NCBI RefSeq assembly: GCF_041248615.1
Contig: NZ_CP158426.1
Source of the DNA: Escherichia coli
GTDB lineage: Bacteria > Pseudomonadota > Gammaproteobacteria > Enterobacterales > Enterobacteriaceae
Reading direction: 5' to 3' (one strand)
Length of the DNA: 64,000 nucleotides
Below, piece after piece: positions 2,927 to 51,807 of this stretch. Below the pieces are notes generated by a model. That model ran no database searches and was not told the origin of the DNA. It saw nothing but the letters and a program-made list of their open reading frames with translations. Numbering within the stretch: the first letter of the stretch is position 1; the number at the start of each line of letters is the position of its first letter. The translations under genes were made by a program, and so were the position numbers.

Positions 2927-2981
2927 GGTGATGCTGCCAACTTACTGATTTAGTGTATGATGGTGTTTTTGAGGTGCTCCA

Positions 2982-3257
2982 GTGGCTTCTGTTTCTATCA
3001 GCTGTCCCTCCTGTTCAGCTACTGACGGGGTGGTGCGTAACGGCAAAAGCACCGCCGGACATCAGCGCTATCTCTGCTCTCACTGCCGTAAAACATGGCA
3101 ACTGCAGTTCACTTACACCGCTTCTCAACCCGGTACGCACCAGAAAATCATTGATATGGCCATGAATGGCGTTGGATGCCGGGCAACCGCCCGCATTATG
3201 GGCGTTGGCCTCAACACGATTTTCCGCCATTTAAAAAACTCAGGCCGCAGTCGGTAA
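2982..3257 (+). CDS. insA: IS1 InsA (transposition repressor / N-terminal part of the transposase)
   Basis: 91-aa [42 protein letters not shown]... characteristic of IS1 InsA. Confidence 0.95.
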
Positions 3258-3679
3258 CCTCGCGCATACAGCCGGGCAGTGACGTCATCGTCTGCGCGGA
3301 AATGGACGAACAGTGGGGATACGTCGGGGCTAAATCGCGCCAGCGCTGGCTGTTTTACGCGTATGACAGGCTCCGGAAGACGGTTGTTGCGCACGTATTC
3401 GGTGAACGCACTATGGCGACGCTGGGGCGTCTTATGAGCCTGCTGTCACCCTTTGACGTGGTGATATGGATGACGGATGGCTGGCCGCTGTATGAATCCC
3501 GCCTGAAGGGAAAGCTGCACGTAATCAGCAAGCGATATACGCAGCGAATTGAGCGGCATAACCTGAATCTGAGGCAGCACCTGGCACGGCTGGGACGGAA
3601 GTCGCTGTCGTTCTCAAAATCGGTGGAGCTGCATGACAAAGTCATCGGGCATTATCTGAACATAAAACACTATCAATAA
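3176..3679 (+). CDS. insB: IS1 InsB (transposase catalytic part, made as InsAB' fusion by -1 frameshift)
   Basis: 167-aa ORF overlapping insA in the -1 frame; characteristic IS1 InsB sequence. Confidence 0.93.
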
Positions 3680-3694
3680 GTTGGAGTCATTACC

Positions 3695-3703
3695 TGTGCA
3701 CGG
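3695..3703. repeat. Right copy of 9-bp target-site duplication TGTGCACGG flanking IS1
   Basis: Exact repeat of 2918..2926 immediately after the IS1 right end. Confidence 0.9.
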
Positions 3704-7940: not shown

Positions 7941-8192
7941 ATGAACAAAGAGACACAACCCATCGACCGCGAGACGCTGTTGAAAGAGGCCAACAAAATC
8001 ATTCGTGAGCATGAGGATACGCTCGCAGGGATTGAAGCCACCGGCGTCACGCAGCGTAATGGCGTGCTGGTATTTACCGGCGACTACTTTTTAGATGAAC
8101 AAGGATTGCCAACAGCCAAAAGCACCGCGGTGTTTAATATGTTCAAACACCTGGCCCATGTGCTTTCAGAAAAATATCATCTGGTTGATTAA
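7941..8192 (+). CDS. yciN: Uncharacterized protein YciN
   Basis: 83-aa [33 protein letters not shown]...; conserved position between topA and sohB. Confidence 0.85.
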
Positions 8193-8202
8193 AAATAAAT
8201 AT

Positions 8203-8227
8203 CCTCCGGCATAGCCGGAGGTTTTTC
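8203..8227 (+). terminator. Intrinsic terminator after yciN
   Basis: Hairpin CCTCCGGC-ATA-GCCGGAGG followed by TTTTTC, 11 bp after the yciN stop. Confidence 0.7.
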
Positions 8228-8900
8228 AAATGCGCCTGTAAGGCTCTGTTACCAGCCGCGCCCTAACAGGCGCATACGATCTGACATTTGCATTCAACTT
8301 CGTTACTTACGGCCCGTAAACGGGCTGCCCGGATAGGGAATCGATAACTGCTCCCCCATTTTATCCTCTTCAAGCTGGTGCTTTATGTAGTCCTGTATCT
8401 TCGCCGTGTTCTTACCCACCGTATCGACATAGTACCCTCGGCACCAGAACTCCCTGTTTCTGTATTTGAATTTCAAATCCCCAAACTGCTCGTAAAGCAT
8501 CAGACTGCTTTTCCCTTTCAGATATCCCATAAAGCCGGATACGCTCATTTTGGGTGGGATTTCCACAAGCATATGGATATGATCTGCGCAGCACTCTGCT
8601 TCCAGAATCCGTACGCTTTTCCACTCACACAGCTTTCTCAAAATACTGCCTATCGCCCTACGCTTCTCTCCGTAAAACGCCAGTCTTCGGTATTTCGGCG
8701 CAAAAACTATGTGATATTTACAGTTCCAGCGGGTGTGCGCTAAGCTCTTTTCGTCCCCCATTGGGACCCCCTTTTGATTTCTTGTTTGACACTTGCAGTT
8801 GCCAGACCGCAAGGTGTTTTAACAAATCAAAAGGGGTTTTAATAACTGGCTCAAAGCTGAAAGCTTTCCGGAACCCCCAGCCTAGCTGGGGGTTTTCTGT
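8228..8900 (-). mobile_element. IS200-like insertion sequence (IS200/IS605 family); boundaries approximate
   Basis: Contains an intact IS200-type tnpA, a structured 5' leader with an RBS-sequestering inverted repeat and a perfect terminal hairpin (8874..8892), plus subterminal palindromes near 8231..8273 and 8307..8330. This family makes no target duplication, so ends cannot be set precisely by eye. Confidence 0.8.
8303..8761 (-). CDS. tnpA: IS200-type Y1 (HuH) transposase TnpA, 152 aa
   Basis: Translation MGDEKSLAHTRWNCKYHIVFAPKYRR...HIHMLVEIPPK...GYYVDTVGKN is near-identical to the IS200 TnpA I recall (HuH motif HIHML, catalytic Tyr region). Track ORF 8303..8812 has an upstream extension; the Met at 8761 has a GGGGG Shine-Dalgarno. 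Confidence 0.9.
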   Translation of the reverse strand: MGDEKSLAHTRWNCKYHIVFAPKYRRLAFYGEKRRAIGSILRKLCEWKSVRILEAECCADHIHMLVEIPPKMSVSGFMGYLKGKSSLMLYEQFGDLKFKYRNREFWCRGYYVDTVGKNTAKIQDYIKHQLEEDKMGEQLSIPYPGSPFTGRK

Positions 8901-8908
8901 GCACAACA

Positions 8909-8935
8909 AAACGCGAGGTCTTAGCCTCGCGTTTG
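8909..8935 (-). terminator. Putative intrinsic terminator downstream of sohB
   Basis: Hairpin AACGCGAGG-TCTTA-GCCTCGCGTT followed by a T-run on the minus strand, directly after the sohB stop at 8940. Confidence 0.6.
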
Positions 8936-8939
8936 TCTT

Positions 8940-9989
8940 TTACATCAATGGTTTTTGCCCCCGCTGCCACCAGCGTAACAACAATCGATCGGCGCTCTCT
9001 GCCGCGCTGCCGGTGAATCGGTCAATGAGTCGTTTACGCTGCATATAGCGTACATTGACCACTTCACGGCCTTCCATCAGGCTAAGAATAACTTCATCAC
9101 TGGTGTTGATTTCATCAACCAGGCCTTTCTCTACCGCCTGTTGTCCGTACCAGTGTTCACCCGTTGCCACCTGATCAATATTCAGAGACGGACGCATACG
9201 CTTCACAAAATCTTTAAATAACTGATGCGTTTCGTTCAGCTCTTCGCGGAATTTCTCCCGCCCTTCTTCGGTGTTTTCACCCAGCAAAGTCAGCGTGCGC
9301 TTATACTGCCCGGCGGTGTGCAGTTCGATATCAATATCTTTGCTTTTCAGGAAGCGGTTAAAGTTGGGCATTTGTGCCACCACGCCAATGGAACCCACAA
9401 TAGCAAACGGTGCGGAAACAATTTTGTCCGCCACACAGGCCATCATGTAACCGCCACTGGCAGCAACTTTGTCTACCGTAACAGTTAAAGGAATGTTTTT
9501 ATCACGCAGACGCTGCAGCTGCGAAGCCGCCAGCCCGTAACCATGCACCATGCCACCAGGGCTTTCCAGACGTAGCACAACCTGATCCTGCGGTTTGAAT
9601 GCTGCGAGTACCGCCGTTATCTCTTCACGTAGCGAGTTCACTTCATGGGCGTCCATGCTGCCTTTAAAATCCAGCACCCAGACGCGAGGTTTACTGTCAG
9701 TTGCCACCTCGCCCAGTTTGGCTTTCGCTTTTGCTGCTTTCGCTTCTTGCTTGTGCTTTTTCTTCTGCGCTTTGTGCCACTGTTTTTGCTGATGTGAGTC
9801 CATCAGCGCCGCGGCCAGTTCTTCTTTCATCTCCTTATACTGTTCGCTGAGATTGTTGACCCGTAACTCGCCACGCTGGCGTTTATTACGTTGAGCAACA
9901 TTGACAATAATGGCGGCAATCGCCGCAATCGCTAGCACAACGGTAACGATTTTCGCCAAAAACAAACCATATTCAGACAACAATTCCAC
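8940..9989 (-). CDS. sohB: Probable periplasmic protease SohB (S49 peptidase family)
   Basis: 349-aa ORF; N-terminal TM segment and ClpP/SppA-like core; conserved position. Confidence 0.93.
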   Translation of the reverse strand: MELLSEYGLFLAKIVTVVLAIAAIAAIIVNVAQRNKRQRGELRVNNLSEQYKEMKEELAAALMDSHQQKQWHKAQKKKHKQEAKAAKAKAKLGEVATDSKPRVWVLDFKGSMDAHEVNSLREEITAVLAAFKPQDQVVLRLESPGGMVHGYGLAASQLQRLRDKNIPLTVTVDKVAASGGYMMACVADKIVSAPFAIVGSIGVVAQMPNFNRFLKSKDIDIELHTAGQYKRTLTLLGENTEEGREKFREELNETHQLFKDFVKRMRPSLNIDQVATGEHWYGQQAVEKGLVDEINTSDEVILSLMEGREVVNVRYMQRKRLIDRFTGSAAESADRLLLRWWQRGQKPLM

Positions 9990-11554: not shown

Positions 11555-11559
11555 GTGAA

Positions 11560-11592
11560 AGCACCTCAAAAGAAGCCTCTTGAGGTGCTTTA
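11560..11592. terminator. Hairpin at btuR 3' end / islet 3' end (possible bidirectional terminator)
   Basis: Inverted repeat AGCACCTCAAAAG / CTCTTGAGGTGCT with a short loop, lying between two convergent gene ends. Confidence 0.5.
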
Positions 11593-11605
11593 ATCATGAT
11601 TATAT

Positions 11606-11914
11606 TCAAGCGGCAATAGCGAAATTCAGAATACGTGTAATCTCATTCAAATGTCCCGGATATGCTTCATGATTCTCAGCGTCAACATCTTCAATAAATA
11701 ATATCAGTTCAGTAATTAACGCATTAGCATCGTCATAATTTATCCCGGCTAACTCTGGCGAAGTTTCAGTACCATAGTTAATCGTCAGGTTGTTCATAAC
11801 TGTGAGGATATGGATAAAATATTTATGACAAACATTACATGTGGTTTTATTACCCAAAGTATTATACAGCATATCAAGTAATGCCAGTATTCTACGGTTT
11901 TGCACATCGTTCAT
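11606..11914 (-). CDS. Hypothetical 102-aa protein (no signal peptide), second gene of the AT-rich islet
   Basis: ORF in AT-rich DNA, 10 bp downstream of the lipoprotein gene on the same strand; contains a Cys-x2-Cys-His motif (CNVCH); no family recognised. Confidence 0.6.
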   Translation of the reverse strand: MNDVQNRRILALLDMLYNTLGNKTTCNVCHKYFIHILTVMNNLTINYGTETSPELAGINYDDANALITELILFIEDVDAENHEAYPGHLNEITRILNFAIAA

Positions 11915-11924
11915 AAAAAGCCTC

Positions 11925-12926
11925 CTATAACATTATTCCGCTGGCAATAAGTAATTTTGCCAGCCCCTCAGACGCCTTTAACCCACTAATGACCTGTGCG
12001 CGTAATATTTCATTTAATCTTTTTTGTTCAGCTGCCGTGCGTGTTTTATTAACGTATAAGCTTTTTAGATAATCACCCTTATCTATAAAGGCATTTAAAG
12101 CCTCAATCGCAGGCATGGCAGGTGCCGATGCCTGTAGTCTGGTTTCATTCACATTGATTACTGAACTTAGAAACTCCTTCCTGTTTTTCAGAGTGTTAAA
12201 CTCTGTATTCTTAGAGTTTTTAGATGCTGTATTATAATAAAACATATTATCATGCACATTCGCAAAGGTATAATTTTCAATCTTATTGCTTTTTGTATAA
12301 ATATCATTGCGCAAAACCGCCATGTTCTTTATAAGTCTTACCCAGTTTTCATCTGCCGTTTTGCCTATTTTTCCAGAATTGACTTTAATTATATATAACT
12401 CATTGAAATAATTTACCAAATCTTTAACCGCTGCTGCAGATTGAACTAAATCTTTGCTATGTGAAACACCAAGTAGTGTTTGTGCGTTGTTTGCGTGATC
12501 CAGAGCCTGTTTAAGTAATGCCACTTGCTGACTTTCCGTAGTTGCCATATCCTTTGTCAGAAGTTCCACATAAGCGCTCATGCTATTAATGACTTCCATT
12601 GAAGCCAGTAATTTTTCTTTCTCGAAAGGGACTAATTGTACTTGTTTTGTATTTGGCCCTGAACGCTGGCATAATTTTCCGCCATTCCCATCACCGCCTA
12701 TATCAATGGTATAATCAGGTCGCAGAGCACAATCCGGATTAGTCGCGTAGAAATTAACAAGGAAGTTTTCACGAGAAGCATAGTATTGTTTAAAGAAACT
12801 TGCATTCGCCGCTACTGCTTTGTTACCCGCAGTAATAACAGTTTCAGCTTGTTCGTTTTTCAATGCTTCAGTTGCACAACCTGAAAGCATTAACAGCGAT
12901 AGAAATATTCCACTATATCTAATCAT
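11925..12926 (-). CDS. Hypothetical 333-aa predicted lipoprotein, first gene of the AT-rich islet
   Basis: N-terminus MIRYSGIFLSLLMLSGC has a hydrophobic core and an LSGC lipobox (signal peptidase II type); the rest is Asn/Lys-rich with no recognisable catalytic motif; codon usage is AT-biased. Confidence 0.7.
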   Translation of the reverse strand: MIRYSGIFLSLLMLSGCATEALKNEQAETVITAGNKAVAANASFFKQYYASRENFLVNFYATNPDCALRPDYTIDIGGDGNGGKLCQRSGPNTKQVQLVPFEKEKLLASMEVINSMSAYVELLTKDMATTESQQVALLKQALDHANNAQTLLGVSHSKDLVQSAAAVKDLVNYFNELYIIKVNSGKIGKTADENWVRLIKNMAVLRNDIYTKSNKIENYTFANVHDNMFYYNTASKNSKNTEFNTLKNRKEFLSSVINVNETRLQASAPAMPAIEALNAFIDKGDYLKSLYVNKTRTAAEQKRLNEILRAQVISGLKASEGLAKLLIASGIML

Positions 12927-13052
12927 AACCCACCTCTTGACGTTGAGTTTATCTCAGATAATTAAATAGTAATGTGGCTATTTCCGGGTATTATTCATAA
13001 GCAAGTATGAAATTAAATTAAAATACTGCGACTATTTATCATGCTTCAAATG

Positions 13053-13080
13053 AAGAAAAGGCCCCGCAGGGCCTTTATTT
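13053..13080 (-). terminator. Intrinsic terminator downstream of rluB
   Basis: Hairpin AAAGGCCC-CGCA-GGGCCTTT flanked by A/T runs, 16 bp after the rluB stop. Confidence 0.65.
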
Positions 13081-13095
13081 TATACTTATCTTAAA

Positions 13096-51122: not shown

Positions 51123-51207
<85 letters not shown>

Positions 51208-51742
51208 TCACTTTCAAAAGTCCCTGAACTCTCAAACGAATCCGTAATTAAATATTCTGCCCAAGCGGGGAAGGATGAGAAGCTTCGACCAAGGTTCGAC
51301 TTGAGCGCCAGCGAGAGAGCGTGGCCGCAGGCAACGACCCGAAGGGCGAAGCGCGCAGCGCTGAGTAATCCTTCCCCCACCACCATAACTTTCAAAAGCC
51401 CCGGAATTCTCAAACGAATCCGCAATCAAATATTCTGCCCATGCGGGGAAGGATGAGAAGCTTCAACCAAGGTTCGACTTGAGCGCCAGCGAGAGAGCGT
51501 TGCCGCAGGCAACGACCCGAAGGGCGAAGCGCGCAGCGCTGAGTAATCCTTCTCCCACCACCATCACTTTTCAAAAGTCCGTGAACTCTCAAACGAATCC
51601 GCAATTAAATATTCTGCCCATGCGGGGAAGGATGAGAAGCTTCGACCAAGGTGCGACTCGAGCGCCAGCGAGAAAGCGTTGCCGCAGGCAACGACCCGAA
51701 GGGTGAAGCGCGCAGCGCTGAGTAATCCTTCCCCCACCACCA
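51208..51742 (+). repeat. Three tandem 178-bp repeat units distal to tyrV (rtT / tpr region)
   Basis: Units at about 51208..51385, 51386..51563 and 51564..51742, each ending in the tRNA-Tyr 3' terminal sequence AATCCTTCCCCCACCACCA; contains a protamine-like basic ORF. Confidence 0.9.
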
Positions 51743-51807
51743 TCACTTCCTGTAAATACTCAAAACCTGTTACTCCGAGCTAATTCTACCCAATGGCACC
51801 GCGTTTA

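Follow-up and report, generated by a model that had tools for sequence, protein, structure and literature searches.

In the stretch of Escherichia coli DNA analyzed here (the window; 64 kb), the convergent genes yciN and sohB are separated by 747 bp as opposed to 35 bp in K-12, a difference of exactly 712 bp that corresponds to a mobile element of the IS200 type. The features of the locus are listed below, with the top strand denoting the tnpA-sense strand throughout:

7941..8192, plus strand: yciN, intact, with 0 amino-acid differences from K-12; its stop codon adjoins the right end of IS200
8193..8904, minus strand: IS200 element, complete, 712 bp, a sister isoform of IS200C
8193..8202, minus strand: right-end tip, a tail of 10 nt rich in T (top-strand sequence ATATTTATTT), lying 3' of the right-end hairpin
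8203..8221, no strand assigned: subterminal hairpin of the right end, with the top-strand sequence CCTCCGGC-TAT-GCCGGAGG (terminator-like in both orientations according to the terminator scan; DNA fold)
8230..8275, minus strand: long hairpin internal to the right end, flanked by the tnpA stop on one side and the subterminal hairpin on the other (DNA fold)
8303..8761, minus strand: tnpA, coding for a 152-aa Y1 HUH transposase, an uninterrupted ORF that starts MGDEKSLAHTRWNCKYHIVFAPKYRR
8753..8842, plus strand: predicted feature, positioned by homology only with coordinates transferred from the Salmonella IS200 (PMC4513863)
8768..8836, minus strand: stem-loop in the tnpA mRNA's 5'UTR, element nt 69-137 (RNA fold)
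8872..8894, no strand assigned: left-end subterminal hairpin, AACCCCCAGC-TAG-GCTGGGGGTT, element nt 11-33 (RNA fold, Rfam alignment)
8895..8904, minus strand: left-end tip, GTGCACAGAA on the top strand, kept in all E. coli copies
8905..8911, minus strand: target, TTTTGTT in the sohB sense, which is the T-tract belonging to the host terminator (junction table)
8912..8931, no strand assigned: bidirectional intrinsic terminator hairpin of the host (terminator scan, 8909-8934)
8940..9989, minus strand: sohB, intact and with its own terminator kept, with 2 amino-acid differences from K-12

We estimate at about 93% the probability that the segment 8193-8904 represents a single IS200 copy that is complete and apparently autonomous, belonging to the tnpA-only group of IS200/IS605. 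The only gene, tnpA, takes up 459 of the 712 bp; there is no tnpB, and the remaining ORFs are overlapping frames within tnpA. Its product matches the Pfam domain Y1_Tnp (PF01797) at 9.1e-37, with positions 2-121 of the 121-position model aligned, and the NCBIfam model transpos_IS200 (NF033573) with 144.4 bits as against a cutoff of 55. Both signature motifs can be read from the translation, namely the HUH motif as H61-I62-H63 and the catalytic tyrosine as Y125-x3-Q129 (Y125-IKH-Q129), and the region holding them is covered by the alignment to the solved IS200-family transposases 2ec2, 2a6m and 2xm3, with structure matches to PDB 2a6m at 3e-19 and 2xm3 at 5e-16. The Pfam and NCBIfam matches and the motifs bear out the initial annotation of this locus, which had proposed an IS200-group element with an intact 152-aa HUH Y1 transposase between yciN and sohB. 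The REP-associated tyrosine transposases (RayT) are distant Y1 HUH homologs; however, the RayT model NF047646 gave 30 bits, far under its membership cutoff of 80, and TnpA is therefore not a member of that group. To our knowledge, RayT/TnpA-REP proteins are the only relatives of the IS200 TnpA in K-12.

On its top strand the element reads 5'-GTGCACAG...ATTTATTT-3', and these same ends delimit 14 copies at 10 different intergenic sites, 13 of them 712 bp long and one, a decayed copy, 706 bp. A 712-bp copy identical to the window element also lies at yddM/fdnI of the near-identical genome NZ_OW967178.1. When the flanks 8113-8192 and 8905-8984 are joined, they recur uninterrupted and at 100% identity in four E. 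coli records, and the insertion is therefore without target duplication or truncation; A/T bases common to both sides allow the boundary to slide, making its placement ambiguous by up to 2 nt. The right-end tip ATATTTATTT is invariant in all aligned copies, with divergence beginning directly outside it, and the left-end tip shows lineage-specific variants in other taxa. No inverted-repeat relationship exists between the tips GTGCACAG and ATTTATTT. The extent originally given, 8228-8900, started 35 nt inside the right end and stopped 4 nt short at the left; the real unit, 8193-8904, was examined for truncation and is complete at both ends, the empty allele being present in four records. A search for further IS200 copies across the 64-kb window found none, and PADLOC, NCBIfam and Pfam searches with the two hypothetical proteins encoded downstream of cobO likewise returned nothing.

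The 35-bp intergenic region of K-12 holds a single structure, the hairpin corresponding to 8912-8931, which is the sole host terminator and serves sohB and, prior to the insertion, also yciN. IS200 follows the T-tract TTTTGTT directly on its 3' side and begins, at the opposite end, with the first base past the yciN stop, thereby parting yciN from this terminator. An alternative parsing has an element of about 8228-8900 inserted between two separate host terminators, of which the hairpin at 8203-8221 would be that of yciN; this draws on the fact that the hairpin is followed by TTTTT, lies 10 nt past the yciN stop and makes a good-looking intrinsic terminator on the yciN strand. We regard this parsing as almost certainly wrong, as the hairpin is missing from both the K-12 empty site and the exact empty allele (four records, 100% identity), is invariant in the IS200 copies at nine other intergenic sites, being present in every copy examined at other loci, and is included in the identical 712-bp copy at yddM/fdnI. 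The local annotation is corrected to the effect that the apparent yciN terminator is transposon DNA, the own right end of the complete IS200, rather than a host structure directly behind which the element had been placed; there is one shared host terminator, and this native terminator is now 712 bp away.

Both sohB and tnpA are encoded on one strand, with sohB the upstream gene, and transcription of tnpA runs from sohB towards yciN; therefore, the read-through into sohB that had been envisaged is impossible, tnpA being downstream of sohB and its transcription heading away from it. Any tnpA transcript that got past the right-end hairpin would be antisense to yciN. Outward transcription of any kind seems less likely, given the terminator-like hairpins at both ends of the element and the known weak promoter of tnpA (PMC4513863). 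The expectation that neither gene is disrupted held, with 0 (yciN) and 2 (sohB) amino-acid differences from K-12.

The ends are highly structured, as had been described. The two subterminal hairpins (8203-8221 and 8872-8894) are perfect, each is placed 10 nt from its own tip, and they are related to one another via compensating changes (left CCCCCAGC/GCTGGGGG, right CCTCCGGC/GCCGGAGG). Both are putative binding sites of TnpA, and the one at 8203-8221 would in addition be the first terminator that yciN transcripts now meet. The 24-nt sequence of the left-end hairpin has exact matches in other genomes, in at least 120 stretches. Folded as DNA, the right end (8193-8305) has a z-score of -5.4, with 0/200 shuffles folding as well, and the RNA fold of the left end (z = -4.9) shows hairpins at nt 11-33 and 69-137. 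The published hairpins of the Salmonella IS200 are at nt 12-34, a bidirectional terminator which blocks impinging transcription, and at nt 69-138, which sequesters the Shine-Dalgarno (SD) sequence (PMC4513863). In the window copy, the 3' arm of the 5'UTR stem-loop extends into the Shine-Dalgarno region, and the stem-loop falls within a match to Rfam STnc490 (RF01405, the IS200 left-end RNA region) at 8771-8894, which scores 146.4 bits (gathering score 56) and is nearly identical to the Rfam consensus. Since the model lies on the tnpA-sense strand and the literature has STnc490/art200 as antisense, this match marks the DNA region rather than a transcript. A match to Rfam Ysr202 at 8166-8226 (28 bits; gathering score 315) involved the hairpin alone and was rejected.

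The near-identity of the left-end RNA region to its consensus could also be read to mean that the relevance of the locus to the host lies mainly in a regulatory RNA (a processed 5'tnpA sRNA, or art200, acting in trans) or in a replacement terminator, and not in a transposon. Trans-acting roles have indeed been reported in Salmonella, where the reported target is the virulence gene invF (PMC5435999; bioRxiv 10.1101/2024.06.26.600842). We consider this reading of the E. coli locus highly improbable, as the patchy presence of the element argues against a conserved host function. We know of no counterpart of invF at the yciN/sohB locus of E. coli. As for the element itself, three features would, as in Salmonella, keep tnpA expression low: the terminator hairpin at the left end, the stem-loop that sequesters the SD, and the antisense RNA art200. 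The gene sohB would retain its own terminator, and yciN, lacking direct access to the host terminator, would encounter the right-end hairpin and the following TTTTT, 10 nt past its stop; with tnpA held down as well, the insertion would thus be expected to be nearly neutral.

The supposition that the element is patchily distributed in E. coli and absent from K-12 proved correct. At a coverage of at least 80% it occurs in 2063 of 5426 complete E. coli genomes (38%), at 1-35 places in each, the search yielding 10,284 places overall, and the MG1655 site is empty (35-bp intergenic region), the record of this strain matching the query at the 33-bp host flank only. The yciN/sohB site itself is occupied by IS200 in 118/5426 genomes, as counted with a junction query that joined 200 nt each from yciN and the IS; this agrees with a query of the joined flanks, which is matched by 5422 genomes, in 5304 of them uninterrupted. 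The window isoform was found there in only two of the 5426 genomes. Accordingly, IS200 at yciN/sohB can serve as a strain marker, occurring in 118 genomes in general and in 2 as the window isoform. Two isoforms are present at the site, and three types of junction occur at its terminator, with the element following TTTTGTT, TTTTGTTT or TTTTGCTT.

The other isoform is IS200C, which agrees with the window copy in length (712 bp), in its ends and target rule, and in its presence at yciN/sohB. The two are 96.1-96.3% identical in DNA, with no gaps and 26-28 substitutions, and 97.4% identical in amino acids when the window copy is compared with PGAP-named IS200C copies, the isoform name being the NCBI annotation of these sister copies; the window variant is labeled by PGAP only as 'IS200/IS605 family transposase', not as IS200C. 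By the ISfinder rule, isoforms have >95% DNA identity or >98% amino-acid identity. The two TnpA proteins have four amino-acid differences (D3N, L27Q, A28V, G31R; window residue first), alongside 17 synonymous codon differences, and across the IS200C-type copies the codon differences from the window comprise 17-20 synonymous as against 4-6 non-synonymous ones. This preponderance of synonymous changes suggests that tnpA is under purifying selection.

Two explanations for the window copy that dispense with current transposition have to be weighed against this distribution. First, gene conversion from the copy at yddM/fdnI, or homologous recombination with it, might have replaced an older resident IS200C. 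In keeping with this, most of the other 116 occupied genomes hold IS200C-type sequence at the site (~96% identity), the IS200C of strain DETEC-S792 has exactly the junctions of the window, and a near-identical genome, NZ_OW967178.1, holds another copy that matches the one in the window at 100% identity; this genome and the window are 99.98% identical from 3695 onward and differ by an extra IS1. However, the strains with the sohB protein allele of the window (TUM14771) carry an IS200C with junctions displaced by 1-2 nt, a shift that conversion of the interior would not yield; the exact empty allele is extant in strains, among them KE55, which also carries the window isoform; and the strong site specificity makes repeated insertions at one nucleotide plausible. 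We thus hold such an overwriting to be unlikely.

Second, the element could be an intact but immobile relic, with its identical copies accounted for by vertical inheritance and recombination. IS200 is reputed to be almost dormant, its transposition being notoriously rare and repressed at several levels (PMC4513863), and decayed copies do occur, such as the frameshifted 706-bp copy at MFS/hypT. On the other hand, copies at least 99% identical are found in different strains at five loci (yebQ/htpX, decR/cof, hcxB/ybiJ, envZ/pckA and yddM/fdnI), and the best match is at least 99% identical in 227 records. Together with the up to 35 places per genome, the mostly synonymous differences in tnpA and the three junction types at one terminator, this leads us to judge immobility improbable, to about the same degree as the overwriting of a resident copy. 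The reading of the element as active draws on the identical copies, and these could also have come about by recombination among them. Returning to an insertion of a mobile IS200, the window copy is probably recent, as only 2/5426 genomes share its configuration and an identical copy is situated elsewhere in a near-identical genome.

The site of insertion follows a general rule. At all 10 E. coli sites a hairpin is followed by T5-7 and then by GTGCACAG. We extended this to 128 distinct non-tandem insertion flanks from many taxa, with 5000 random positions as the control. A hairpin is present within 12 nt in 93% of the 128 flanks; a hairpin combined with five or more T among the final 7 nt is seen in 84% of them as opposed to 0.54% of the controls; and the mean MFE is -18.6 kcal/mol for the flanks versus -8.4 kcal/mol for the controls. 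The target consensus over these flanks is TTTNTT/GT, with TTTNTT directly 5' of the tip. This contrast of 84% with 0.5% quantifies the preference for terminators and is usable in the design of target oligonucleotides. Odaert et al. (1998) are said to have proposed stem-loops as hot spots for IS1541. A search of the literature for explicit statements on the target specificity of IS200 returned incidental mentions and one 2025 preprint on terminators, in which no other IS family is reported to have as strong a signal of upstream terminator-like sequences as IS200/IS605 (bioRxiv 10.1101/2025.07.22.666184).

With regard to strand, the GC skew of the window plus strand is negative throughout (cumulative -0.28), and the tnpA-sense strand is therefore the G-rich one, which is the template of the lagging strand. 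The IS200/IS605 family has a bias towards the lagging-strand template, and the position of the top strand at this single locus is consistent with the orientation bias of the family.

By analogy with the mechanism of IS608 and ISDra2, the element would move as a single strand by 'peel and paste'. TnpA would bind both hairpins on the top strand and excise a single-stranded circle, which would then be inserted on the 3' side of a short, T-rich target made accessible as single-stranded DNA by the replication fork. The host terminator, a hairpin followed by a T-run, resembles the right end, a hairpin followed by ATATTTATTT, and this likeness probably explains the strong preference for terminators; guide-pairing and right-end mimicry together are the putative cause of the targeting. 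In its general form, the proposal that the IS200 group chooses its targets by structural mimicry, with terminators resembling its own right end on the single-stranded lagging-strand template and the element therefore ending up directly behind them, is a tentative one, to which we would grant somewhat less than even odds. The comparison is between a terminator comprising a GC-rich hairpin with a T-run of roughly 5-8 nt and a right-end tail, ATATTTATTT, of 10 nt. Under such mimicry, the yciN/sohB terminator would be a recurrent hot spot, the three junction types and two isoforms implying at least two or three independent insertions there. The terminator-like hairpins at both ends would re-terminate the convergent gene that is cut off, rendering the insertion nearly neutral, and the head-to-tail tandems of IS1541 in Yersinia pestis, in which one copy's left end comes after another's right end, would represent the same reaction with a real right end as the target.

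Comparisons with known systems place the element close to the IS200 of Salmonella enterica (Lam and Roth 1983; Beuzon and Casadesus; Ellis and Haniford, PMC4513863). Common to the two are the single tnpA, a terminator hairpin at the left end, a stem-loop that sequesters the SD, and the art200/STnc490 region; the Salmonella element is reported to be 707 bp as opposed to 712 bp here, where the host is E. coli. The IS1541 of Y. pestis has an identical 24-nt left-end hairpin, ~93% identity in TnpA and 86.7% in DNA, and insertions directly 3' of terminator-like hairpins with T-runs, but it differs in its tip (GTGCCCAGAA versus GTGCACAGAA here), its much higher copy number and its head-to-tail tandems. 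More distantly, IS608 of Helicobacter pylori and ISDra2 of Deinococcus have in common with it the fold and motifs of the transposase, the subterminal hairpins, the lack of target duplication, insertion 3' of a short target and a right-end cleavage point 10 nt from the foot of the hairpin. In contrast to the present element, which has no tnpB, perfect hairpins and a T-rich target beside a host hairpin, they possess tnpB, imperfect palindromes and the defined targets TTAC or TTGAT.

IS200 has long been known from E. coli other than K-12, the gene is already annotated by NCBI, and the biology seen here is already known. With neither neighboring gene disrupted, the insertion carries little weight as a finding, being rather a clean example of IS200 located precisely behind intrinsic terminators. 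A functional analogy is offered by the bacterial group II introns of class C. These retroelements, which have no relationship to IS200 and work through a ribozyme and a reverse transcriptase, home just past the stem-loops of intrinsic terminators and likewise spare genes.

The yciN-sohB intergenic region of the window spans 747 bp, and its one substantial ORF, the tnpA gene of an insertion element, lies on the minus strand. With the tnpA-sense strand as the top strand, the left end is the high-coordinate side next to sohB and the right end lies next to yciN:

7941-8192, plus strand: yciN, intact, with 0 amino-acid differences from K-12
8203-8226: right-end hairpin CCTCCGGCATAGCCGGAGG followed by TTTTT, terminator-like on both strands in a consensus terminator scan
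8303-8761, minus strand: tnpA, coding from its ATG for a 152-aa protein, the same as that quoted in the initial annotation
8872-8894: left-end hairpin, 10 nt from the left tip, with the right-end hairpin as its counterpart
8912-8931: the sole host terminator hairpin, with the element lying between it and the yciN stop codon
8940-9989, minus strand: sohB, intact, with 2 amino-acid differences from K-12

TnpA matches the Pfam Y1_Tnp model end-to-end (9.1e-37) and the NCBIfam IS200-transposase equivalog with 144 bits (cutoff 55), and its full catalytic core aligns with those of the solved IS200-family transposases 2ec2 (2e-23), 2a6m of IS608 (3e-19) and 2xm3 of ISDra2 (5e-16). Both the HUH motif (H61-I-H63) and Y125-x3-Q129 are present. 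Membership of the REP-associated transposases was ruled out by the corresponding NCBIfam model (30 bits as against a cutoff of 80). Upstream of tnpA there is a 146-bit match (gathering score 56) to Rfam STnc490, a model of the left-end RNA region of IS200. Given these transposase and STnc490 matches, the initial identification of an IS200-type element with a Y1 transposase is correct far beyond chance. All family-defining features within reach of sequence analysis are present, placing the element in the IS200 group as a sister isoform of IS200C, the E. coli isoform named by NCBI PGAP. It is not new in kind. The TnpA of IS1541 of Yersinia pestis is ~93% identical and its DNA 86.7% identical.

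In K-12 MG1655 the yciN and sohB stop codons are separated by 35 bp, comprising one hairpin that is terminator-capable in both directions; the window is longer by 712 bp. The element is indeed missing from K-12, as initially stated, with the query match in the MG1655 record limited to a 33-bp host flank. The ends were mapped by aligning the element with copies that other E. coli genomes carry between different gene pairs (yebQ-htpX, decR-cof, yeaD-gapA, hisI-wzzB, mgtT-dgcZ, MFS-hypT, yddM-fdnI, hcxB-ybiJ and envZ-pckA). At all of these the similarity starts and stops at identical bases, 5'-GTGCACAG...ATTTATTT-3' in the tnpA sense, corresponding to window 8904 down to 8193. A 712-bp copy with 100% identity lies at yddM-fdnI of NZ_OW967178.1, a genome 99.98% identical to the window, and the empty allele (8113-8192 joined to 8905-8984) occurs uninterrupted with 100% identity in four records (three of ST2747 and one of KE55). 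From this identical copy and the seamless empty allele, the insertion is exactly 712 bp, without target duplication, deletion or end truncation; its boundary can be slid by at most 2 nt owing to shared A/T bases. The element is complete at both ends. The span initially assigned to it, 8228-8900, missed 35 nt at the right end and 4 nt at the left tip, the true span being 8193-8904.

The structure earlier taken for the yciN terminator belongs instead to IS200 as its right-end hairpin, because it is missing from both the K-12 site and the exact empty allele, is invariant in all IS200 copies examined at other loci, and stands 10 nt from the right tip. The top-strand sequence is AACCCCCAGC-TAG-GCTGGGGGTT for the left-end hairpin and AACCTCCGGC-TAT-GCCGGAGGAT for the right-end hairpin; the two have a common architecture, and their stem differences are mutually compensating.

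Folded as RNA, the left 155 nt reach -63.9 kcal/mol (z = -4.9, no shuffle as good). Element nt 11-33 form a hairpin, ~nt 36-57 a small one, and nt 69-137 a long stem-loop that extends with its 3' arm into the Shine-Dalgarno region. The first and last match the two functional structures of Salmonella IS200, in which impinging transcription is stopped by a terminator hairpin at nt 12-34 and the SD is sequestered by a stem-loop at nt 69-138 (Ellis et al., PMC4513863). In the right 113 nt, the fold consists of a long hairpin (8230-8275) and the subterminal one (z = -5.4). By homology to Salmonella, where STnc490/art200 is a 90-nt RNA antisense to the tnpA 5'UTR (Ellis et al., PMC4513863), art200 would lie at ~8753-8842 on the plus strand. 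The Rfam RF01405 (STnc490) match at 8771-8894 is on the minus, tnpA-sense strand and takes in the left-end terminator hairpin; the model appears to differ from the published sRNA in strand or in extent.

As initially supposed, neither neighboring gene is disrupted. sohB appears to keep its terminator after the insertion, while yciN transcripts are now predicted to reach the IS200 right-end hairpin and TTTTT first, with the native hairpin 712 bp further on. The suggested read-through into sohB is impossible, because tnpA is transcribed in the same direction as sohB and lies downstream of it. Conceivable leaks are sohB read-through into IS200, of the kind blocked by the left-end hairpin in Salmonella (Ellis et al., PMC4513863), tnpA read-through beyond the right end, antisense to yciN, and art200 transcription toward the sohB 3' end; each would be faced by predicted hairpins. 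The second look at this locus has thus corrected the ends, the owner of the 'yciN terminator' and the direction of read-through.

All E. coli copies examined have a GC-rich hairpin and then 5-7 T directly before the left tip, constituting the intrinsic terminator of a same-strand gene upstream of tnpA. In the window this target is the sohB terminator, CGCGAGG-CTAAGA-CCTCGCG-TTTTGTT followed by GTGCACAG. For a wider survey, one genome per species was scanned for the exact 24-nt left-end hairpin, giving at least 120 stretches; the matches listed include Yersinia pestis (IS1541), several Vibrio species, Brenneria, Pluralibacter, Edwardsiella and Budvicia, and MAGs classified as Mailhella/Desulfovibrio, Oxalobacter, Bacillota, Peptococcaceae, Saccharibacteria and Elusimicrobiaceae. 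Together with the E. coli loci, the listed matches provide 128 distinct non-tandem flanks, 93% of which have a hairpin ending at most 12 nt from the tip. A hairpin together with 5 or more T among the final 7 nt is seen in 84% of them as against 0.54% of 5000 random control positions from the same loci; the 45 nt upstream of the tip have a mean folding energy of -18.6 kcal/mol as against -8.4 in the controls, and the last six bases show the consensus T-T-T-N-T-T. The same terminator-target proposal was reportedly made for IS1541 by Odaert et al. in 1998. Our statistics agree with a 2025 preprint (bioRxiv 10.1101/2025.07.22.666184), in which, among IS families, the strongest upstream signal of this kind is the terminator-like sequence before IS200/IS605 elements. 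The present analysis gives this rule numbers.

In the paradigmatic IS608 and ISDra2, TnpA, bound to subterminal hairpins of a single strand, cuts the element out as a single-stranded circle; this is inserted 3' of a short single-stranded target, with the lagging-strand template preferred. This mechanism fits the window element with respect to the hairpins at both ends, the lack of duplication, the fixed short left-end target and the 10-nt distance between the right-end cleavage point and the foot of the hairpin. Throughout the window the plus strand has a negative GC skew, the tnpA-sense strand being G-rich; therefore, the IS200 top strand is on the lagging-strand template. A single-stranded terminator would resemble the element's own right end (hairpin plus ATATTTATTT). 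In IS608, guide sequences pair with the cleavage and target sites; likewise, the A-runs just 5' of the IS200 hairpins (CAGAAAA at the left, TTGAAAAA at the right) could pair with the T-rich cleavage and target sites. Y. pestis has head-to-tail IS1541 pairs, in which one copy's left end is joined straight onto another's right end, an arrangement that would fit this picture. Such pairs occur in Y. pestis NCTC5923 (loci L079, L080, L082, L096 and L126) with the left tip GTGCCCAG preceded by right ends in ...CCTCCGGCTATGCCGGAGGATATTTATT or ...ATTTATTT, consistent with either the use of the element's own right end as target or a retained circle junction.

The patchy distribution initially proposed is borne out by the genome-wide count: 2063 of 5426 complete E. 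coli genomes have the element at 80% of its length or more, at 1-35 places per genome, with 814 places on plasmids. The yciN-sohB site is occupied in 118 genomes and uninterrupted in 5304. The window's own sequence occurs there only in NZ_OW967178.1 and NZ_LT599825.1; the other occupied genomes sampled have an IS200C-type sequence, 96.1-96.3% identical without gaps. The two TnpA versions differ at 4-6 residues as against 17-20 synonymous codons, an excess that indicates purifying selection on tnpA. Three junction types are found at this one terminator:

TTTTGTT-IS-TTAATC: window, DETEC-S792 and 19KM1776
TTTTGTTT-IS-AATC: TUM14771
TTTTGCTT-IS-TAATC: KTa008, where removal of the IS gives back the exact K-12 sequence

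These junctions, together with the two isoforms, point to repeated independent insertion at this terminator; less probably, T-run slippage and conversion between copies could account for them. The window copy is probably recent, since it is identical to the yddM-fdnI copy, its exact empty allele is still extant, and strains with the window's sohB protein allele carry the other isoform with another junction.

A decayed relative lies at 1501-2212 of locus L009 (E. coli ECE313, MFS-hypT); it is 706 bp long and 93.7% identical, with tnpA frameshifted and bearing an internal stop, and a changed left-end hairpin (CCCCCAGCCTGGCTGGGGA), in an unchanged position after a terminator T-tract. The exact 24-nt left-end hairpin AACCCCCAGCTAGGCTGGGGGTTC recurs in very distant taxa among the matches listed (loci L015-L134), beside lineage-specific 10-nt tips such as GTGCCCAGAA, GTATAGAGAA, GTTAAAAGAA and GTGAAACGAA, with TnpA identity down to 74% in a Saccharibacteria MAG. 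This suggests either that the hairpin is strongly constrained or that horizontal transfer has carried it widely, and some MAG contigs may be misbinned.

The window also has a complete 768-bp IS1 copy (2927-3694; InsA ORF of 91 aa and InsB frame) with inverted repeats GGTGATGCTGCCAACTTACTGAT and ATCAATAAGTTGGAGTCATTACC, flanked at 2918-2926 and 3695-3703 by the 9-bp direct repeat TGTGCACGG, a target duplication. It lies between cysB and ymiA (in NZ_OW967178.1 coordinates) and is absent from NZ_OW967178.1, which from 3695 onward otherwise matches the window at 99.98% identity; the two therefore derive from different isolates. Between cobO and rluB, where the K-12 gap is 40 bp, a 1.5-kb insert (11555-13095) codes for two co-directional hypothetical proteins that have no significant match in Pfam, NCBIfam or PADLOC:

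11606-11914, minus strand: hypothetical gene, 102 aa
11925-12926, minus strand: hypothetical gene, 333 aa

Of 5426 E. coli genomes, 424 have at least 80% of this insert, and 1237 match some portion of it. Finally, three tandem repeats of ~178 bp, ~94% mutually identical, lie downstream of two tRNA-Tyr genes (51189-51748); they are annotated in the matching genome as copies of the RtT sRNA processed from the tyrT transcript, and the region looks like an ordinary tyrT locus.
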